Part shown: positions 8,152 through 13,775 of the stretch, one piece after another
How positions within the stretch are numbered: the stretch's first letter is position 1
Layout of the letters: the number at the start of each line of letters is the position of its first letter
Source of the DNA: a virus
Virus genome (UHGV): UHGV-0300571
DNA length: 13,936 bases
Reading direction: 5' to 3' (one strand)
The notes under the pieces: model-generated
What the model was told of the DNA's origin: nothing
The model's input: only the letters and a program-made list of their open reading frames with translations
The model's database searches: none
Program-made: the position numbers and the translations under genes

Positions 8152-8349
8152 TCCCCACCACTCCCCACTTTTGTTCCCCACTTTTTAAAATTCCCCACTT
8201 GCTCCCCACCTCGTTTTTTTGTGATTCTAACGTGATGTTTTTCAATGTGTTTTTTACTCCCCACTTTTTTGGGTATATACAGGTGGGAAAGTGGGGAGTA
8301 ACGTTGATTTTTTGTTAAATTCCCCACTCTCCCCACTTTTGTTCCCCAC
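8152..8349. repeat. Replication origin: TCCCCAC iteron clusters flanking an AT-rich segment
   Basis: Direct copies of TCCCCAC (often TCCCCACTTTT) at 8152, 8162, 8175, 8192, 8203, 8258, 8321, 8330 and 8343. An inverted copy GTGGGGAG is at 8291-8298. An AT-rich stretch at 8211-8256 sits between the clusters. The region is immediately 3' of the replication-initiator gene. Confidence 0.7.
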
Positions 8350-8352
8350 TTT

Positions 8353-9768
8353 TTACATCGGGTGAACAGCATCGCCGTCAATAGCGATTACGTCGTCACT
8401 TTCCAGCTTGCGTAACCAGCGACTAAAGTGCTTCATCTCATACCCCAGCTTTTTCATATCATCGCGCAACAACGGAATTGTGCATTTATCGCCGCGCTGT
8501 GTGCGTGAACGGATACAGCCCCATAGTGCGGCATGATTTTCCGTCTTGTTCCCGGCTTCCTCGATGCGTTCCAGTTCAACGGGTGGGCGCGGCTTATCCA
8601 CAACCACCAGTGACGTGATTAACTCCCCGTCAGTGTCGGTAAAAAGCTCCACCACGCGTAAATCATATGCAGCCTCTTTCAGTTCCTCCGCGTCCTTCAT
8701 TTTGGTGCAGGAGATAACCAGGGCTTCACTGTCTGCACCTTCACGGCGAATACGGTATTCAGCGTCCAGAGATGCACGAAATGCACTGGAACCACGCGCC
8801 CCCTTTGTTTCATCCTTGCCGGAATGGTGAACCACCAGTACCGTGGCCCCTGTGCGTCGTTTCAGTTCGTCACATCCACGGATAAACGCCCCCATATCCC
8901 GCGCGTCATTTTCATCATTACCGCCAAAGCAACGCGCCAGCGTATCCAGAATAATCATGCGTACCGGTTTACCCGTTTCCCGTTCAACCTGGCGGGAAGC
9001 GATGACCATTTCATCAACATCAAGCGGGGCTGCCGGAAAAATCGGGCGGTTTACCAGGTACAGATTTTTCACCCGTTCATCATTAACGATTTCCCATGCC
9101 TTGATACGGCGGGGGACACCAATGCCACCTTCACCGACAACATACATCACCGAACCATGCGCAACCCTGCGGCCTCCCCAGTGGCGCCCCGTGGCAACAT
9201 GACACGCCCAGGAACACGCGAGGAATGATTTATAGGAACCGCTCGCGCCGTATGTGCTGCACAACGAATTAGCCGGAATCACGCCCTTAACGACATAATC
9301 AAGCTGTGTGTCGTACCCTGTAGATCCAATACTCATTGGTAGCGTGGTTTTTCGCTGGCTGTATTGCTCGTCAGTAAGTATTTCCCCGCGCTCTGCCTGT
9401 TCGCGGATCCGTTGCAGGTAGTCGTGCCAGTTCTCCAGCTTCTGGCTGTGCATTCCCTCAGGGTAATAATTCGCATCCCGTACACCTGCCGCCGCCAGCT
9501 TTTGCCCGATGGCATTAATATTTGACGGCTTGATGTGGCCTGCCTTGTATAGCCGGACACAATAGCGACCATCGTCGATGATTTTCAGGTCTGCCAGTTC
9601 GTCAAGCTGGCTGTCTCCAAGCCATACAGGTGGCACGTTGTCGCCAGCAAGTCGTCCGTCCTGTTCCTGCCACTGTTTCGCGTGCGCCCAGGCATCACTA
9701 CCCGCAAAAATAATGACTTCGGTCATTTTGTCGTGTGGCTGTTTTTTTAAGTTCGGTGCCAGTTTCAT
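8353..9768 (-). CDS. Replication initiator: N-terminal primase/origin-binding-like region fused to a RecA/DnaB-like (AAA_25-type) ATPase
   Basis: 471 aa. Walker-A-like YGASGSYKSFLA, the motif ...VLVVHHSGKDETKG... and MIILDTLARCFGG, consistent with RepA/DnaB-like helicase loaders of satellite and PICI replication modules. ATG at 9766-9768 overlaps the upstream stop. The iteron origin is directly downstream. Confidence 0.8.
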   Translation of the reverse strand: MKLAPNLKKQPHDKMTEVIIFAGSDAWAHAKQWQEQDGRLAGDNVPPVWLGDSQLDELADLKIIDDGRYCVRLYKAGHIKPSNINAIGQKLAAAGVRDANYYPEGMHSQKLENWHDYLQRIREQAERGEILTDEQYSQRKTTLPMSIGSTGYDTQLDYVVKGVIPANSLCSTYGASGSYKSFLACSWACHVATGRHWGGRRVAHGSVMYVVGEGGIGVPRRIKAWEIVNDERVKNLYLVNRPIFPAAPLDVDEMVIASRQVERETGKPVRMIILDTLARCFGGNDENDARDMGAFIRGCDELKRRTGATVLVVHHSGKDETKGARGSSAFRASLDAEYRIRREGADSEALVISCTKMKDAEELKEAAYDLRVVELFTDTDGELITSLVVVDKPRPPVELERIEEAGNKTENHAALWGCIRSRTQRGDKCTIPLLRDDMKKLGYEMKHFSRWLRKLESDDVIAIDGDAVHPM

Positions 9769-10064
9769 TTTTTGCCCCTGAATGCGTTAATCATGTTTTT
9801 CATTTTCTGAATATTTGCCTGTGCCTTTGCGTTGCTGGTGGGCTGTTTGCGTGGTGTGGCCTGTATCAGTGAAAAATCACGCCGGAACTGATAAACAGGC
9901 ATCACACAGTCATAGCCGTACCCATCACGGCGGTAAGTAACGCACCGTCCTGCCACGCTTTTTATCGTTACCGTGCCGCCGTAGTTATCCCGGAAAATAT
10001 CGCCGGGGTGGATTTCAGGCCGAGCGGGGCCGCTGGCAGTAAAGCCAGAAATTTTCTGTTTCAT
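9765..10064 (-). CDS. Hypothetical protein, possibly DUF4222-like (99 aa)
   Basis: ATG at 10062-10064 with AGGA upstream. The motif ...GDIFRDNYGGTVTIKSVAGRCVTYRRDGYGYDCVMPVYQFRRDF resembles DUF4222 phage proteins from memory. Confidence 0.5.
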   Translation of the reverse strand: MKQKISGFTASGPARPEIHPGDIFRDNYGGTVTIKSVAGRCVTYRRDGYGYDCVMPVYQFRRDFSLIQATPRKQPTSNAKAQANIQKMKNMINAFRGKK

Positions 10065-10069
10065 GGTTT

Positions 10070-10279
10070 TTATTCCTCTGCGCGGGTCTTGTTGTGTATT
10101 TCCATAACCGCGTTTAATTCATCAATAACCGGGGTTAACAGAGTGCTGAAAGCAGAAAATAAATCCCCCCCCTGTTCGGCATGAACTTCGGTTAATTTAA
10201 TTAATACCGCTTTCATTTCCAGTGCCCGATTTAATGCATTCTCAGAATGAATAAGAACATCGAAAGGGATTTTATCCAT
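10070..10279 (-). CDS. Hypothetical small protein (69 aa)
   Basis: ATG at 10277-10279 with GGAGG 9 nt upstream. Contains a G8 homopolymer on the coding strand (plus 10165-10172). Overlaps the upstream gene by 8 nt. Confidence 0.5.
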   Translation of the reverse strand: MDKIPFDVLIHSENALNRALEMKAVLIKLTEVHAEQGGDLFSAFSTLLTPVIDELNAVMEIHNKTRAEE

Positions 10280-10505
10280 GGCTTACATCCTCCGTGAATT
10301 TTCTTCTGTACCGTGCCTCTGCCACATATTCAGCATAGTCCGACGCAATAATAAGAATATCGTTGCCGGTTCCTGAATGTTCAGCGGTTCCAATTAAAAA
10401 ACATGCGGCCTTTATCAGGTCATTAACAGCCAGCAACGCATCGCCTGTATCTTCCGGTGCGCCATCAAATTCCTGTTTCAGGGCATTAAAACGATCATCA
10501 CGCAT
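10272..10505 (-). CDS. Hypothetical small protein (77 aa)
   Basis: ATG at 10503-10505 preceded by a G-rich SD-like stretch. Overlaps the stop of the upstream gene by 8 nt. Weak resemblance to the adjacent 10498-10737 product, suggesting a possible tandem paralog. Confidence 0.45.
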   Translation of the reverse strand: MRDDRFNALKQEFDGAPEDTGDALLAVNDLIKAACFLIGTAEHSGTGNDILIIASDYAEYVAEARYRRKFTEDVSHG

Positions 10506-10737
10506 AACCCCCCCCATTTTCACAATCAGCAATCAGGATGGCTTTAGCCTCATTCAGTGCCATATCAGCACTAAGTTGCATTACAGCCAGTGAATGAGGA
10601 ACGAAAGCCCCGGCATATTCTGTTTCGCTGGTGGCGTGCTTATGCGCCTTGTCTGCGATAACAGAAATATCAATCAGCGCGTGCATCAGCGTTTTGATGG
10701 CTTCGGCGGCTGCGTCCGGACGGGTGTTATTGCACAT
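10498..10737 (-). CDS. Hypothetical small protein (79 aa)
   Basis: ATG at 10735-10737 overlapping the stop of the upstream gene (ATGTGCAATAA). A G8 run lies in its 3' end (plus 10508-10515). Confidence 0.45.
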   Translation of the reverse strand: MCNNTRPDAAAEAIKTLMHALIDISVIADKAHKHATSETEYAGAFVPHSLAVMQLSADMALNEAKAILIADCENGGGYA

Positions 10738-10933
10738 GGCGCACCCCCTGACGAATACGGGCGGCGAATACCATCACACAGCCAGCCGGGGATTGCTGGC
10801 GTGCTTCCTGTTCGCTGGTGGCCTCAATGGTAATCACGCGCGGCTGTGCCGTGCTCAGGGCGATAAAACGCCAGATGTATTTACTCAGGTTGTGCGAGTC
10901 CCGCCCTTGCGGGTGTGTGGTATGATTTAACAT
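10727..10933 (-). CDS. Hypothetical small protein (68 aa), first gene of the minus-strand early operon
   Basis: ATG at 10931-10933 with GAGGT 5 nt upstream. It is the only well-initiated portion of an otherwise implausible 394-aa track ORF. Confidence 0.4.
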   Translation of the reverse strand: MLNHTTHPQGRDSHNLSKYIWRFIALSTAQPRVITIEATSEQEARQQSPAGCVMVFAARIRQGVRHVQ

Positions 10934-11030
10934 AGCTACCTCGATACTTCTGCTATCGTTGGTGGTTAGAAGCCCCGTTACTGCTCCAACAGTGCGGGGT
11001 TTCGTCGTTTCTGTGCCTTGCATTAACAAG

Positions 11031-11111
11031 GTGTAAGACACAATGTAAAATACAAGTGTCTTACACGTCAAGCCTTCAAAATAATTTTTTTTCGTGTATA
11101 TTGTCTTACAC
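11031..11111. promoter_or_regulatory. Divergent promoter/operator region with three GTGT-N3-ACAC operator-like sites
   Basis: GTGTAAGACAC (11031-11041) and its exact reverse complement GTGTCTTACAC (11056-11066), plus TTGTCTTACAC (11101-11111) overlapping a putative -10 (TATATT, 11097-11102) of the plus-strand RHH-like gene. A candidate -35 TTCAAA is at 11075-11080. On the minus strand a possible TTGACG -35 lies at 11067-11072. Confidence 0.5.
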
Positions 11112-11132
11112 CAACAACATAAGGAGTTAGAC

Positions 11133-11312
11133 ATGGCAACAGGTCCAAAGAATGCAAAATCACAATCTGTAACTGCACGTATTGCCCATGAAATTATTGA
11201 AGGCATGGAAAACGTGAAAGAAGAAGGCGAAAGTACAGGGCAGTTTATAAGTGCAGCCATGCGCGGCGAGATCAAACGCCGCCAGCGCCGCAAGGCCAAA
11301 GAGCAGGAGTAA
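11133..11312 (+). CDS. Small DNA-binding protein, ribbon-helix-helix-like (candidate repressor)
   Basis: Strong RBS AAGGAG 7 nt upstream of ATG 11133. The 59-aa product has an RHH-like layout: a beta-strand segment (SQSVTARI), helix A, a G-x-S/T turn (GESTG), helix B, and a basic tail. It is divergent from the early operon and adjacent to the palindromic operators. Confidence 0.5.
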   Translation: MATGPKNAKSQSVTARIAHEIIEGMENVKEEGESTGQFISAAMRGEIKRRQRRKAKEQE

Positions 11313-11369
11313 CCATCACCAGCGCCGTGGTGCGGTGAACTGTGGCGCACAGGGTTACAGGTATCTACG

Positions 11370-11567
11370 ATGACTGACAAATCATTAAAGAAATTATCCT
11401 CATCCAGGAAAAAACAACGCAAAAACGCGGTAAGAGAACATGAACAGGAAAGATTCGCGCCATGTGCGTTTGTCCTTGAAAAGTTCCTTAAAGAGTACAG
11501 GCGCACAAAAATGGGATCGCATGCCTGGAAAACATCGCAGCATGGCGATACTAAAGAGCAGGAATAG
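11370..11567 (+). CDS. Hypothetical basic small protein (65 aa), uncertain
   Basis: ATG at 11370 with only a weak AGG upstream. Very basic product. Followed by an intrinsic terminator at 11670-11699. Confidence 0.3.
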   Translation: MTDKSLKKLSSSRKKQRKNAVREHEQERFAPCAFVLEKFLKEYRRTKMGSHAWKTSQHGDTKEQE

Positions 11568-11669
11568 CCCACCAGCAAGCCAGCGCACTGATCACATTGC
11601 CAACCGGATGTAATCACGGCATAGTAATCAGCGCTTATGCGTTGGGGATAACGTGTAGCTTGTGTTGAA

Positions 11670-11699
11670 GGGCCACCGTAGCGGGTGGCCTTTGTTTTG
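11670..11699 (+). terminator. Rho-independent terminator
   Basis: GGCCACC-GTAGCG-GGTGGCC followed by TTTGTTTTG. Confidence 0.65.
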
Positions 11700-11751
11700 C
11701 CTGTTATCCGGCAATTGTGGCGCTTCGCTACACGGTTGATATAATCCCCCT

Positions 11752-11822
11752 GCACTGATCCAATTTTTTCGCAGCAGGTTAATTGTTCAGAAAGGCGGCT
11801 CCATTTCGGGGCCGCTTTTTTT
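11752..11822 (+). ncRNA. Candidate small RNA (~70 nt), convergent with alpA
   Basis: Extended -10 TGATATAAT at 11737-11745 (with a weak -35 TTGTGG at 11715-11720), then about 45 nt, then a strong intrinsic terminator GGCGGCUCC-AUUU-CGGGGCCGC + U7 (11794-11822). No ORF with an RBS in this interval. Confidence 0.3.
11794..11822 (+). terminator. Rho-independent terminator, possibly bidirectional
   Basis: An 8-bp stem with one G-U pair plus TTTTTTT on the plus strand. On the minus strand the same hairpin is followed by CTTTC, so it could also end the alpA transcript. Confidence 0.7.
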
Positions 11823-11963
11823 ATGCCTGAAAAACCACAATTTTGTTGTTTTCCAGTCTCACCAGGACGAGCGAAGCCCCGCCCCTGTTCGGGCGTATAT
11901 CCAGTCTTCATGGTTAGATCTCTGTATTAGTGGATGGGTGGCGGCTGTGTGCCGCCAGCCTGA

Positions 11964-12152
11964 TTAGTGAACTGCCTCGCAGCTGTCTTTCCATGCCAGA
12001 ACTTCGGATAAAGACCAGCCAACGGAACGACCGCCGAGCTTACGCCGTGATGGGAATTGTCCGGTTTTTTCCAGGCGGTAGCGACATGAGCGGCTCAGGC
12101 CTGTAAGTTGTTGGCATTCTTTTTCACGAATAAAGCGATCTGTGCTTAACAC
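11964..12152 (-). CDS. alpA: AlpA-family (Xis/excisionase-like, winged-helix) transcriptional regulator
   Basis: 62 aa. The motif ...QQLTGLSRSCRYRLEKTGQFPSRRKLGGRSVGWSLSEVLAW... matches the AlpA/phage-excisionase signature. GTG start at 12150-12152 with GGGGGA 6 nt upstream; there is no internal Met. Confidence 0.85.
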   Translation of the reverse strand: MLSTDRFIREKECQQLTGLSRSCRYRLEKTGQFPSRRKLGGRSVGWSLSEVLAWKDSCEAVH

Positions 12153-12441
12153 AAGAATCCCCCTTTGTTGTTTCTTAAAGCGTCATTGGGTGGCTTATTG
12201 GGTTGAGTTGCGTCAGATTGTGTCAGGGGGATTGGGAGTTGGCAAACACTGGTGTGGTGTTCGTCGCTGAAACAGGAGTAATGAGAATAAAAACTCTTTT
12301 AATTCATTGTGATGTAGTAGCGTAAAATTCTGTTTTTACGCCTTTTTTACATGTTTTTAAGAGTGATTCGCCAATGTACAAAAAGCCAGTAAAACGACTG
12401 AAAATCAACTTTTTAGGGTGTCGGTCAGATGATAATCAAGT

Positions 12442-12522: not shown

Positions 12523-13752
12523 TTATATTTCTCTGGCTATTGGCAGTGTGGTTACGTTTTCGTGAGTACCTGCCAGTATCTCTAACCGCTCTGTCCACAT
12601 GTCCAGCGCATTACGTTTCGCATCGAGATAACGGGAGTGGTTATAGACTCGCTGCATCCCTGGCATCTGGTGAGCGGTGAGTTGTTCGACAATATGCGGA
12701 TCCACGCCTAAATCGTTCAGCATTGTGGTAAACGTGCGCCGTATATCGTGCAGGGACCAGTGAGGATGGTTTAATTTTTTGTGCGTAAATCTGCCGTATT
12801 GTGACACGCTGGCTTCCTGTTTCAGTTCCCCGAGTAATAACCCTGTGTGCCTGTTCTGCTCCACCAGCTGCGTGACGAACGGCAAAATGCTTTCCGGTAT
12901 TGGCCTGAATATGGCGACCTTCGTTTTGCTGTGTTCTTTCGGTACCGTCCAGAGCATTTCCTTAAAATCCCACTCCCTGATCTCCGACAGCCTCAGTTCT
13001 CCGGTTCGGCAGCCAAACACAATCAGGAGGCGGATTAGTGCGCTGTAGTAGGGCGGGAATATTTTTTTATCCAGCGCCTGTAATAATTCGCTCAGTTCTT
13101 TGTTGCTCAGCACGCGTTCGCTTATGCCCGGCTTTTTGCCAACGTCCACCACGTTGAGATCATCCAGAACGTTACTGACTGCGTAGCGACGTTTACGGCA
13201 GAACTTAAGCGCCTGTTTACACGCCTGCATCATGTGACCAGACGTTACGGGGGATTTTTTGCGTATCCGGTCAAAACAGGCCAGCCAGTGACGCAACTCG
13301 CATTTATCCAGTGGCATATTGCCAATATGCTGTATGACGTGATTATTCAGGCGGCTTTTCAGGGAGACGTAATCGACACGGTTTTCCTTTACGTGCATTT
13401 CCAGCCAGTAGCTGATCGCATCACCCACCGTTACCGGCTTTAGTGCTTCCTGTATGGAGTAATTAAGCTCATGGCGTGGATTTTTTCCCTCTGCCAGCCA
13501 TGCGCGACACTGTGCTGCTTTTTCTCTGGCTGCTTTCAGGCTCAGATCAGGATAATTTCCCAGCTTCAGGCGTTCCGGTGATACCTGGCGTCCTGTTCCT
13601 GCCCTGTAGGTGAAATACCAGGTTAACAGGCCGCTGGTGGAGTGTCTGATACTCAGGTTTCCACCGTCATTAAGAAATGTGGTTTTTGGGGCTGGTGTGC
13701 CGTTGATTTTTCTTAGCTGTGTATCGCTCAGTTTGTTAAGTGCTCTGCTCAT
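12523..13752 (-). CDS. int: Tyrosine site-specific integrase (P4-like family)
   Basis: Arm-binding-like N-terminal domain (...LSDTQLRKINGTPAPKTTFLNDGGNLSIRHSTSGLLTWYFTYR...) and a C-terminal catalytic region with ...HDIRRTF...HQMPGMQRVYNHSRY... (catalytic Tyr context). Start is uncertain: ATG at 13750-13752 is preferred, with in-frame ATG at 13770 and GTG at 13773 as alternatives. Confidence 0.9.
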   Translation of the reverse strand: MSRALNKLSDTQLRKINGTPAPKTTFLNDGGNLSIRHSTSGLLTWYFTYRAGTGRQVSPERLKLGNYPDLSLKAAREKAAQCRAWLAEGKNPRHELNYSIQEALKPVTVGDAISYWLEMHVKENRVDYVSLKSRLNNHVIQHIGNMPLDKCELRHWLACFDRIRKKSPVTSGHMMQACKQALKFCRKRRYAVSNVLDDLNVVDVGKKPGISERVLSNKELSELLQALDKKIFPPYYSALIRLLIVFGCRTGELRLSEIREWDFKEMLWTVPKEHSKTKVAIFRPIPESILPFVTQLVEQNRHTGLLLGELKQEASVSQYGRFTHKKLNHPHWSLHDIRRTFTTMLNDLGVDPHIVEQLTAHQMPGMQRVYNHSRYLDAKRNALDMWTERLEILAGTHENVTTLPIAREI

Positions 13753-13775
13753 AATTTTGAATCCGGTCATCACAA

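Follow-up and report, generated by a model that had tools for sequence, protein, structure and literature searches.

A ribbon-helix-helix (RHH) protein of 59 aa, encoded between alpA and the early operon of a phage-inducible chromosomal island, is probably an autoregulated repressor of the island's early promoter—an immunity-like control that, judging from sequence comparison, would act through three GTG-N5-CAC sites and be combined with a P4-like bypass. Our computational analysis establishes the fold of the protein, the layout of the sites, the covariation between protein and sites, and selection on a long reading frame that runs antisense through the entire arrangement. The protein is very probably the repressor that Gram-negative islands were thought to lack.

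The island, its early operon and the divergent RHH gene

Pfam matches together with the ORF list identify the window—the whole stretch of 13,936 nt analysed here—as a capsid-forming phage-inducible chromosomal island. One strand carries the integrase, AlpA and the replication protein along with the island's own capsid, protease, portal, connector and terminase, with Pfam matches for all of them; after the early operon, the minus-strand genes encode SSB, PerC, the major capsid protein, the prohead protease and the portal, and the same run continues with the connector, an HNH protein, and the small and large terminase subunits. No tail genes were seen among the ORFs or Pfam matches of the 13.9-kb window. 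The gene alpA lies upstream of the early operon on the same strand, and between the two are found the sole plus-strand genes of the stretch, namely the RHH gene and a 65-aa ORF (orf65). A first-pass annotation, made from the letters and the ORF list, had described a 59-aa gene with a strong ribosome-binding site, divergent from a minus-strand operon of five small genes followed by rep; we recovered every element of this description, the annotated interval (11031-11312) starting at the first operator, O1. The features needed for the argument are given below, from the integrase end, with the operators listed without strand.

12523-13773, minus strand: integrase (Pfam)
11964-12152, minus strand: alpA, the known activator of Gram-negative islands of this kind (Pfam Phage_AlpA, 2.7e-18)
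10727-11911, minus strand: eta-like open frame of 394 codons, in frame with the Icd-like gene; first ATG at 11911, 52 nt after the alpA stop codon
11791-11826, plus strand: second terminator-like hairpin with a T run
11668-11693, plus strand: terminator-like hairpin whose T run is confined to the plus strand; the RHH transcript probably ends here
11370-11567, plus strand: orf65, the 65-aa ORF 3' of the RHH gene (phrog_21027, 3.8e-46)
11133-11312, plus strand: candidate repressor, a 59-aa ribbon-helix-helix protein of the YlcI/YnfO family; ATG at 11133, stop codon ending at 11312
11120-11126, plus strand: Shine-Dalgarno sequence TAAGGAG of the RHH gene, read from the sequence, with the ATG six bases on
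11101-11111: O3, TTGTCTTACAC, matching at 10 of 11 positions; overlaps the last 2 nt of the P_R -10 and the P_R start region
11075-11102, plus strand: predicted promoter of the RHH gene, P_R; weak -35 TTCAAA, -10 TATATT at 11097-11102 (consensus scan)
11056-11066: O2, GTGTCTTACAC, in the P_L spacer, abutting the P_L -35
11042-11071, minus strand: predicted early promoter P_L; -35 TTGACG at 11071-11066, 18-nt spacer, -10 TACATT at 11047-11042 (consensus scan)
11031-11041: O1, GTGTAAGACAC, directly after the -10 of P_L, covering the P_L start region
10942-11003, minus strand: structured leader of the early transcript, with hairpins at 10969-11003 and 10942-10958, just 5' of the Icd-like start codon
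10727-10933, minus strand: Icd-like (Kil-like) gene, first in the early operon (NF033153, 1.5e-19)
8353-10737, minus strand: remainder of the early operon, comprising four small ORFs (one DUF4222) and an AAA_25 replication protein
8353-9768, minus strand: the AAA_25 replication protein, last gene of the early operon

The 200-bp gap between the two divergent units had been reported to hold a site, its exact reverse complement 25 bp away, and a near-copy on the -10 of the RHH gene, and all three were located there: O2 is the exact reverse complement of O1, 25 bp from start to start, and O3 lies across the end of the P_R -10. The 10-mer TGTCTTACAC occurs in three exact copies inside 81 bp and nowhere else in the 13.9 kb, the chance level being 0.64 copies with up to one mismatch over the whole window. 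The earlier description of the operators as GTGT-N3-ACAC survives only in part: the sites stand, but we rejected the pattern, since it is not enriched (8 matches with up to one mismatch in the whole window against 5.3 expected) and relatives keep GTG-N5-CAC, which is the invariant part of the site among them. Both P_L and P_R are predictions from consensus, and the -35 of P_R is weak.

The structured leader of the early transcript was written out by hand and its pairs were counted. Compensatory changes occur in 15 of its 18 pairs, and pairing holds in 90% of the cells of the alignment, falling to 30-41% once the partners are slid; applied to the same alignment, RNAalifold gave mere fragments of the hairpins. 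Scans of the whole window, of 10600-12400 and of 10900-11060 returned no Rfam family at threshold for either the leader or the window. The only match, a weak one, was to R1162 antisense RNA, at 17 bits against a threshold of 55.

The 59-aa protein matches the curated model NF041551 (YlcI_YnfO_N) over residues 9-50 with 66.8 bits (curated cut-off 30; 1.2e-18), in agreement with the RefSeq naming of its homologues as members of the YlcI/YnfO family. Two PHROG families of no assigned function also match; no Pfam model does at E up to 1, and this includes DUF3950, after which RefSeq names the K-12 YlcI product. We recovered 113 homologues across Enterobacterales, nearly all of 59-64 aa, and none in 50,697 phage records. 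An AlphaFold2 model of a single chain, built from a 52-sequence alignment, bears out the first-pass reading of the protein as RHH-like: with a pLDDT of 90.4, it predicts an extended N-terminal segment and two helices in strand-helix-helix order, the RHH fold of about 45 residues. Because searching PDB sequences with a profile of the family brought no useful match, we relied on fold comparison instead, in which the PDB matches included the RHH proteins TraM, PcfF and ParB-like proteins as well as many antitoxins (HicB, TacA, MazE, VapB, RelB). The family alignment has S10 and R16 unchanged throughout and much variation at residues 12 and 14, and polar residues at 10, 12, 14 and 16 alternate with hydrophobic ones at 13, 15 and 17, the pattern expected for a predicted RHH strand that turns one face to DNA. 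The C-terminal part of the protein is a conserved basic helix.

Conservation of the layout and covariation with the strand residues

A scan for related loci, taking one genome per species, yielded 80 loci from Escherichia, Enterobacter, Citrobacter, Serratia, Yersinia, Pectobacterium, Xenorhabdus, Proteus, Morganella and other genera. In most loci with enough flanking DNA, the region lies between int and alpA at one end and an Icd-like gene and Rep at the other, and in 80 loci the RHH gene is divergent from the replication operon. Three related 11-mers could be placed in 68 loci, at about 100-112, 77 and 32 bp 5' of the start codon; when anchored on a neighbouring TCAA, the equivalent of O2 lies about 77 bp before the ATG (-76 to -80) in 74 loci. 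Among 66 distinct regions, the spacing from O2 to O3 is 45 bp in 58, the P_L -35 that abuts O2 reads TTGA[CA]G in 47 and begins with TTGA in all 66, and the P_R -10 that abuts O3 is TATACT in 49; the P_R -35 is poorly conserved among the same regions. The spacing from O1 to O2 is variable (22, 23, 25, 28 and 34-36 bp) and does not fit a single fixed cooperative geometry. O1 is inverted relative to O2 and O3 in 29 loci and not inverted in 35, either orientation being tolerable for a two-fold symmetric binder.

While the sites share the form GTG-N5-CAC (CTG...CAG in a few loci), their 5-bp core falls into 22 classes, among which are TCTTA in the window and, elsewhere, TCAGC, AAATA, AACAC, TGGCC, AATCG, AATGC and TCGGA. 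The expectation that the palindromes would be conserved in related elements is thus borne out for the three-site layout, kept in the 68 loci, but not for the sequence of the site, which varies in step with residues 12 and 14 of the protein—stronger support than conservation by itself would have given. Mutual information with the core class peaks at exactly these two residues (MI/H of 0.98 and 1.00; z of 16.5 and 17.4). Nearly all protein columns have high mutual information with the class, and some of the association between protein and operators, which lie 30-100 bp apart, is plain linkage; the argument therefore rests on stratified comparisons and on the contrast between core and flank.

As relatedness inflates mutual information, we compared pairs of similar identity over the remainder of the protein. 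In the 0.7-0.8 stratum, pairs that agree at residues 12 and 14 (n=107) have 0.36 mismatches in the 7 core positions, against 2.8-3.4 for pairs in which one or both residues are different. Core identity is 92% with matching residues at these positions and 28%, the chance level, with differing ones; the corresponding values are 76% and 66% for the 34-nt spacer, and 0.96 and 0.93 for the GTG/CAC flanks. The three cores inside one element are 94% identical. Judged on these comparisons, linkage alone cannot yield the pattern of core against flank, which would need a single binding specificity shared by all three sites and changing in step with the strand residues. One E. coli locus separates the module from its surroundings: the RHH-operator module is 99.7% identical, with AlpA at just 61%, a Rep that is shared only over its first 130 residues and then continues into another catalytic domain, and an insertion elsewhere in the chromosome, beside cspD. 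The operator set therefore travels with the RHH gene and not with AlpA, Rep or Int. Avoidance of a shared operator class between co-resident elements was not significant, with 1 of 24 pairs sharing a class against 3.0 expected (P = 0.18). The lone class-sharing pair looks like one element split over two contigs.

The antisense frame and a proposed switch

The eta-like frame of 394 codons runs antisense through orf65, the RHH gene, both predicted promoters and the operators. Its Icd-like domain is confined to residues 345-388, and no domain was found in the N-terminal extension. We assessed its openness by counting stops frame by frame across the 185-nt intergenic region plus the RHH gene in 78 distinct loci. 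One minus frame, whose first base pairs with codon position 2 of the RHH gene, is stop-free in 64 of the loci and closed in 14; the other two minus frames hold on average 8.4 and 9.0 stops and are never open, and shuffling the intergenic region leaves a given frame free of stops in 1.7% of cases. The register is such that a T-ending codon followed by a CAN codon creates a TGA on the antisense strand. Over the 78 distinct RHH genes, 0 of 372 codons preceding Gln or His (CAN) end in T, versus 23.9% of other codons, with a Fisher P of ~1e-42 that overstates independence, the sequences being related. Such codon usage demonstrates, at the level of sequence, selection on the long antisense frame to stay open. 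The RHH gene and the antisense frame share their wobble positions, the most permissive form of overlap, so that one can be kept without loss of the other.

Of 51 loci, 21 have the top of the frame overlapping alpA or no more than 60 nt away from its stop. Two E. coli islands are among these; there the alpA stop codon itself forms the upper limit of the frame, and a Met follows three codons on. Other DNA intervenes between alpA and the frame top in the remaining 30 of 51, so direct coupling to alpA is not universal. The NCBI pipeline (PGAP) sometimes calls the long frame in place of the RHH gene, as in strain Ecol_316, where the call is a 310-aa 'Icd-like protein' spanning the region.

From these computed features we infer DNA binding, repression and a bypass, which would combine into a switch as follows. 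The earlier suggestion of an autoregulated repressor that also controls the replication operon gains support from the positions of the sites on P_L and P_R and from the covariation, and we regard it as likely that the 59-aa protein is a sequence-specific repressor of both promoters. Going by the site positions, occupancy of O1 and O2 would cover the start region and spacer of P_L, which is predicted to drive the Icd-like gene, the four small genes and the replication protein, and occupancy of O3 would cover the start of the repressor's own promoter. With sites on both promoters, the resting island would hence keep replication and the toxic Icd-like gene off while the repressor limits its own level. 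The covariation suggests that the variable 5-bp core is recognised by residues 12 and 14, which point outward from the N-terminal strand, with the invariant S10 and R16 and the invariant GTG/CAC flanks providing a common grip; many mutually distinct specificities may result, as in phage immunity groups. On entry into a naive cell, the early promoter would fire until the repressor builds up.

For induction, a mechanism that bypasses the repressor is our tentative proposal, to which we give slightly less than even weight. By analogy with P4, induction might proceed without removal of the repressor. Helper-induced transcription of alpA—self-activating and sufficient for the island cycle—would start upstream and read through on the minus strand, sustained by translation of the long frame that ends in the Icd-like gene. 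Such read-through would bypass the repressed P_L and collide with the convergent transcription of the repressor gene, and the plus-strand T-run hairpins (11668-11693 and 11791-11826) would end the repressor transcript while leaving minus-strand transcription unhindered. In published work AlpA is sufficient for induction and no repressor was noticed (PMC6092414), so the contribution of the RHH protein could be small under laboratory conditions.

The sites themselves might instead belong to another island protein, as an AlpA activation site, Rep iterons, or integrase/excisionase arm sites, with the RHH protein doing a different job. AlpA is a known DNA-binding activator of these genes (PMC6092414), and short repeats near replication genes are often iterons. 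We nevertheless consider this very unlikely, since the 99.7% identical module sits beside a 61% AlpA, another Rep catalytic domain and another insertion site, and the core tracks RHH residues 12 and 14 at matched background divergence; moreover, the sites lie on predicted promoter elements away from rep, their 10-mer occurs nowhere else in the window, and the published origins of these islands lie downstream of the primase gene (PMC10111431). It is also highly improbable that the long minus-strand ORF is the real gene and the 59-aa ORF an antisense by-product, even though the PGAP call of a 310-aa 'Icd-like protein' and no RHH gene in Ecol_316, as well as the selection on the long frame, point in that direction. 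The 59-aa ORF has a strong ribosome-binding site, a curated family model, a confident RHH fold prediction with residues invariant across genera, and strand residues that covary with the operators, whereas the long ORF of the window has an N-terminal extension devoid of domains, and the shared wobble positions let both frames persist.

An antitoxin that autoregulates, with orf65 as its toxin or with the Icd-like protein neutralised directly, would accord with the many antitoxins among the RHH matches (HicB, TacA, MazE, VapB, RelB), with the autoregulation of RHH antitoxins via palindromes, and with the annotation of Icd-like proteins as cell-division inhibitors. We see scant prospect for it: orf65, although 55% identical to the same-position gene in EcCICFT073, is not conserved across the family, having no homologue in the 80 loci of other species or in two E. 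coli islands (L081 and L082), and it matches no toxin family in family-model searches; in addition, the C-terminus of the RHH protein is a conserved basic helix with no variable toxin-binding tail, and two of the three sites are on the opposite promoter. A further reading has the RHH protein bind the sites without being the maintenance repressor: it would act in late or Cro-like shut-off, activate P_L or P_R, or serve as a structural accessory in excision, replication or packaging (TraY/MobC-type, cos-adjacent). RHH proteins fill all such roles (PDB matches TraM, PcfF and ParB-like), P22 Mnt is both repressor and activator, and the namesake YlcI adjoins cos and the small terminase gene in prophage DLP12. 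However, O1 and O2 on the start region and spacer of P_L and O3 on the start of P_R occupy repressing, not activating, positions; a lone gene on its strand with its own predicted promoter suits expression in the resting state; and K-12 YlcI is too distant for a BLASTP alignment and is without such sites. We judge this reading unlikely and prefer an autoregulated repressor of P_L and P_R.

Distribution and comparison with known systems

At least 877 of 5426 complete E. coli genomes carry the module, a single genome having as many as five copies, and a classical O157:H7 island has it too. The prototype EcCICFT073 carries a YlcI/YnfO gene at NC_004431.1 1380473-1380652, accompanied by the sites GTGTGGCCCAC, twice, and CTGTCCCCCAC, and by an antisense frame of 433 codons. 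In the literature on EcCICFT073, and on these islands with RHH, we found no description of it, with coverage incomplete and an earlier description elsewhere possible; a recent survey of islands lists a 'YlcI/YnfO family protein' among island genes and says no more. The founding paper calls a global repressor 'unclear', presents Gram-negative islands as unidirectionally transcribed, and calls the reason for the difference between Gram-negative and Gram-positive islands 'a mystery' (PMC6092414). Since 2018 the Gram-negative islands have been taken to differ from the Gram-positive ones in having no known master repressor and in their one-way transcription, and the first-pass remark that accounts of AlpA-dependent islands lack such a repressor is accurate.

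A broader proposal, on which we are evenly divided, is that many Gram-negative islands, EcCICFT073 included, have an unrecognised master repressor and immunity system: RHH proteins of 59-62 aa that form a family with no fewer than 14-22 distinct operator specificities, governed mainly by two residues, and that are encoded antisense in a translated read-through frame from alpA to replication, the convergent units forming a bistable switch as the protein counterpart of P4 RNA immunity. If this is true, the repressor exists and was overlooked because small genes were unannotated in the prototype, and the view of these islands as unidirectional and repressor-less would be overturned. P4 satellites and these islands would then share one regulatory design, with RNA or protein as the determinant, and satellite immunity classes would be predictable from two residues. 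The family could also serve as a source of very small, apparently orthogonal repressor-operator pairs, and the locus would be a clear example from nature of a working gene that lies antisense within a translated frame. EcCICFT073 allows direct tests; genetic tools for it already exist.

The arrangement recalls the Stl and Rpr systems of staphylococcal and other Gram-positive islands, in which a repressor gene divergent from the excision/replication operon keeps the island quiescent (PMC6092414). Stl, however, is a large helix-turn-helix protein removed by helper-phage proteins, whereas the protein here is a 59-aa RHH without sequence relation to it; furthermore, the RHH gene is not co-directional with int, and the islands here are induced via AlpA. 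Among established repressors, Arc and Mnt (P22 immI) and CopG and omega (plasmids) are very small RHH proteins that read DNA with the N-terminal strand. Their targets are short sites, repeated or pseudo-palindromic, that overlap promoters, and they regulate both themselves and an antirepressor or replication gene, with Mnt and Arc acting at a divergent promoter pair. The window protein differs from them in having no detectable sequence similarity (PDB profile search) and in the GTG-N5-CAC form and three-site layout, which are specific to its family, and none of them is nested antisense in a translated frame. By its score above the curated cut-off, the window protein resembles the YlcI/YnfO family (NF041551; K-12 prophage ylcI and ynfO), a family of no assigned function that one paper lists as 'prophage-associated protein'. 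K-12 YlcI differs in lying beside cos/nohD and in giving no BLASTP alignment to the window protein, and the region upstream of K-12 ylcI contains no GTG-N5-CAC triplet; being too distant and in another context, it was set aside as a model.

P4 shares with the window the order, on one strand, of an AlpA-family gene, a long ORF ending in an Icd-like (Kil) domain, small genes, and a primase/replication gene. On the P4 record (X51522), eta is an ORF of 214 aa (8168-8812) whose start falls within the 3' end of ORF88, the AlpA homologue, and whose C-terminal part is an Icd-like domain; this domain was confirmed on the record itself, a tblastn search of the phage collection with the Icd-like protein not having recovered P4. 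From a constitutive promoter inside eta, P4 makes transcripts that end early through the CI immunity RNA, while full-length eta is translated solely from the upstream late promoter, and its translation keeps transcripts from that promoter from terminating (PMC10111431). The likeness to this system (vis/eta-kil/CI RNA; P_LE and P_LL) extends to an internal early promoter before the Icd-like part with a second promoter upstream of the AlpA homologue, and to a long ORF that spans the immunity determinant, the open frame of the window being under comparable selection. The determinant itself is different: P4 immunity is exerted by a same-strand CI RNA through premature termination, whereas the candidate determinant in the window is a protein gene on the opposite strand, with operators on the internal promoter. 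No C4/isrK immunity RNA was found here at the gathering threshold or at E up to 10, P4 eta has a Phage_ASH domain that the extension in the window does not, and the RHH homologue is missing from P4. We would describe the region as a P4-type immunity region in which a probable protein repressor is nested antisense.

Leader of the early transcript and C-terminus of the RHH protein

Two elements lie at the start of the minus-strand early transcript, whose first gene is Icd-like and which later includes the replication gene:

10942-11003 (-): leader separating the predicted early promoter from the start codon of the Icd-like gene
11016-11031: palindrome CCTTG-N6-CAAGG, directly adjoining O1, the first putative operator of the RHH protein (a candidate repressor), at the early transcript's 5' end

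The leader holds two hairpins that are kept across relatives, and 15 of their 18 pairs show compensatory changes. This stretch matched no Rfam family; its one weak resemblance there was to the antisense RNA of plasmid R1162 (17 bits, where the threshold is 55). The paired arms of the palindrome likewise change together in related loci (CCTTGA...TCAAGG, CCATA...TATGG and ACCAA...TTGGT), and it could represent either an RNA hairpin or the site of another protein.

Within the 59-aa RHH protein itself, the C-terminal motif EIKRRQR (residues 46-52; 11268-11288) is near-invariant across all specificity classes, in contrast to the predicted operator-reading residues, which vary between them. The motif may serve a common function, such as contacts with the DNA backbone, dimer-dimer contacts or the binding of a partner protein.

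DNA between the RHH gene and alpA, and its annotation

Downstream of the RHH gene, four features were recovered on the way to alpA:

11370-11567 (+): basic 65-aa ORF (phrog_21027), 3' of the RHH gene
11668-11693: hairpin with a T run on the plus strand only
11791-11826: hairpin with a T run on the plus strand only
11930-11960 (-): GC-rich hairpin GGCGGC-ACACA-GCCGCC, directly past the alpA stop codon and ahead of the long frame's first ATG

Like the RHH gene, the 65-aa ORF lies antisense within the long frame, a 394-codon minus-strand open frame (10727-11911). It is 55% identical to its positional counterpart in the prototype island EcCICFT073; islands of other genera lack it, as do some of those in E. 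coli. The first two hairpins also fall inside the long frame and look like one-way terminators of the repressor transcript; the third has no T run.

RefSeq treats this region inconsistently (locus L087 from NZ_CP018957.1, 1524-2456 and 1930-2109; locus L085 from NC_004431.1): some genomes carry the RHH gene and a short Icd-like gene, and others a 310-aa 'Icd-like protein' that takes in the RHH gene. In CFT073, the locus tags of the RHH and Icd-like genes (C_RS30120 and C_RS30125) are numbered far later than those of their neighbors, which would fit their subsequent addition to the annotation and may be why they were overlooked.

Replication proteins, co-resident islands and the K-12 namesake

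The replication proteins of the window (8353-9768) and of an E. coli island (L081, 472-2595) are 75% identical over their N-terminal 130 residues, beyond which their catalytic parts are unrelated (AAA_25 and DUF927, respectively), a combination that hints at an exchange of domains within the replication module.

Islands sharing one genome differ in operator class (L003/L024/L051/L055, L021/L043/L062/L067 and other multi-copy genomes), and two Xenorhabdus genomes hold four classes each. Avoidance of the same class among co-resident islands was not significant at this sample size: of the 24 pairs, 1 had a class in common, where 3.0 would be expected (P = 0.18).

The namesake of the family lies in E. 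coli K-12:

L086, 6252-6446: ylcI, pointing away from nohD, the small terminase gene, with the cos region of prophage DLP12 in between

No repeated GTG-N5-CAC sites were found at this locus. K-12 YlcI appears RHH-like on inspection by eye, and its role may be unrelated.
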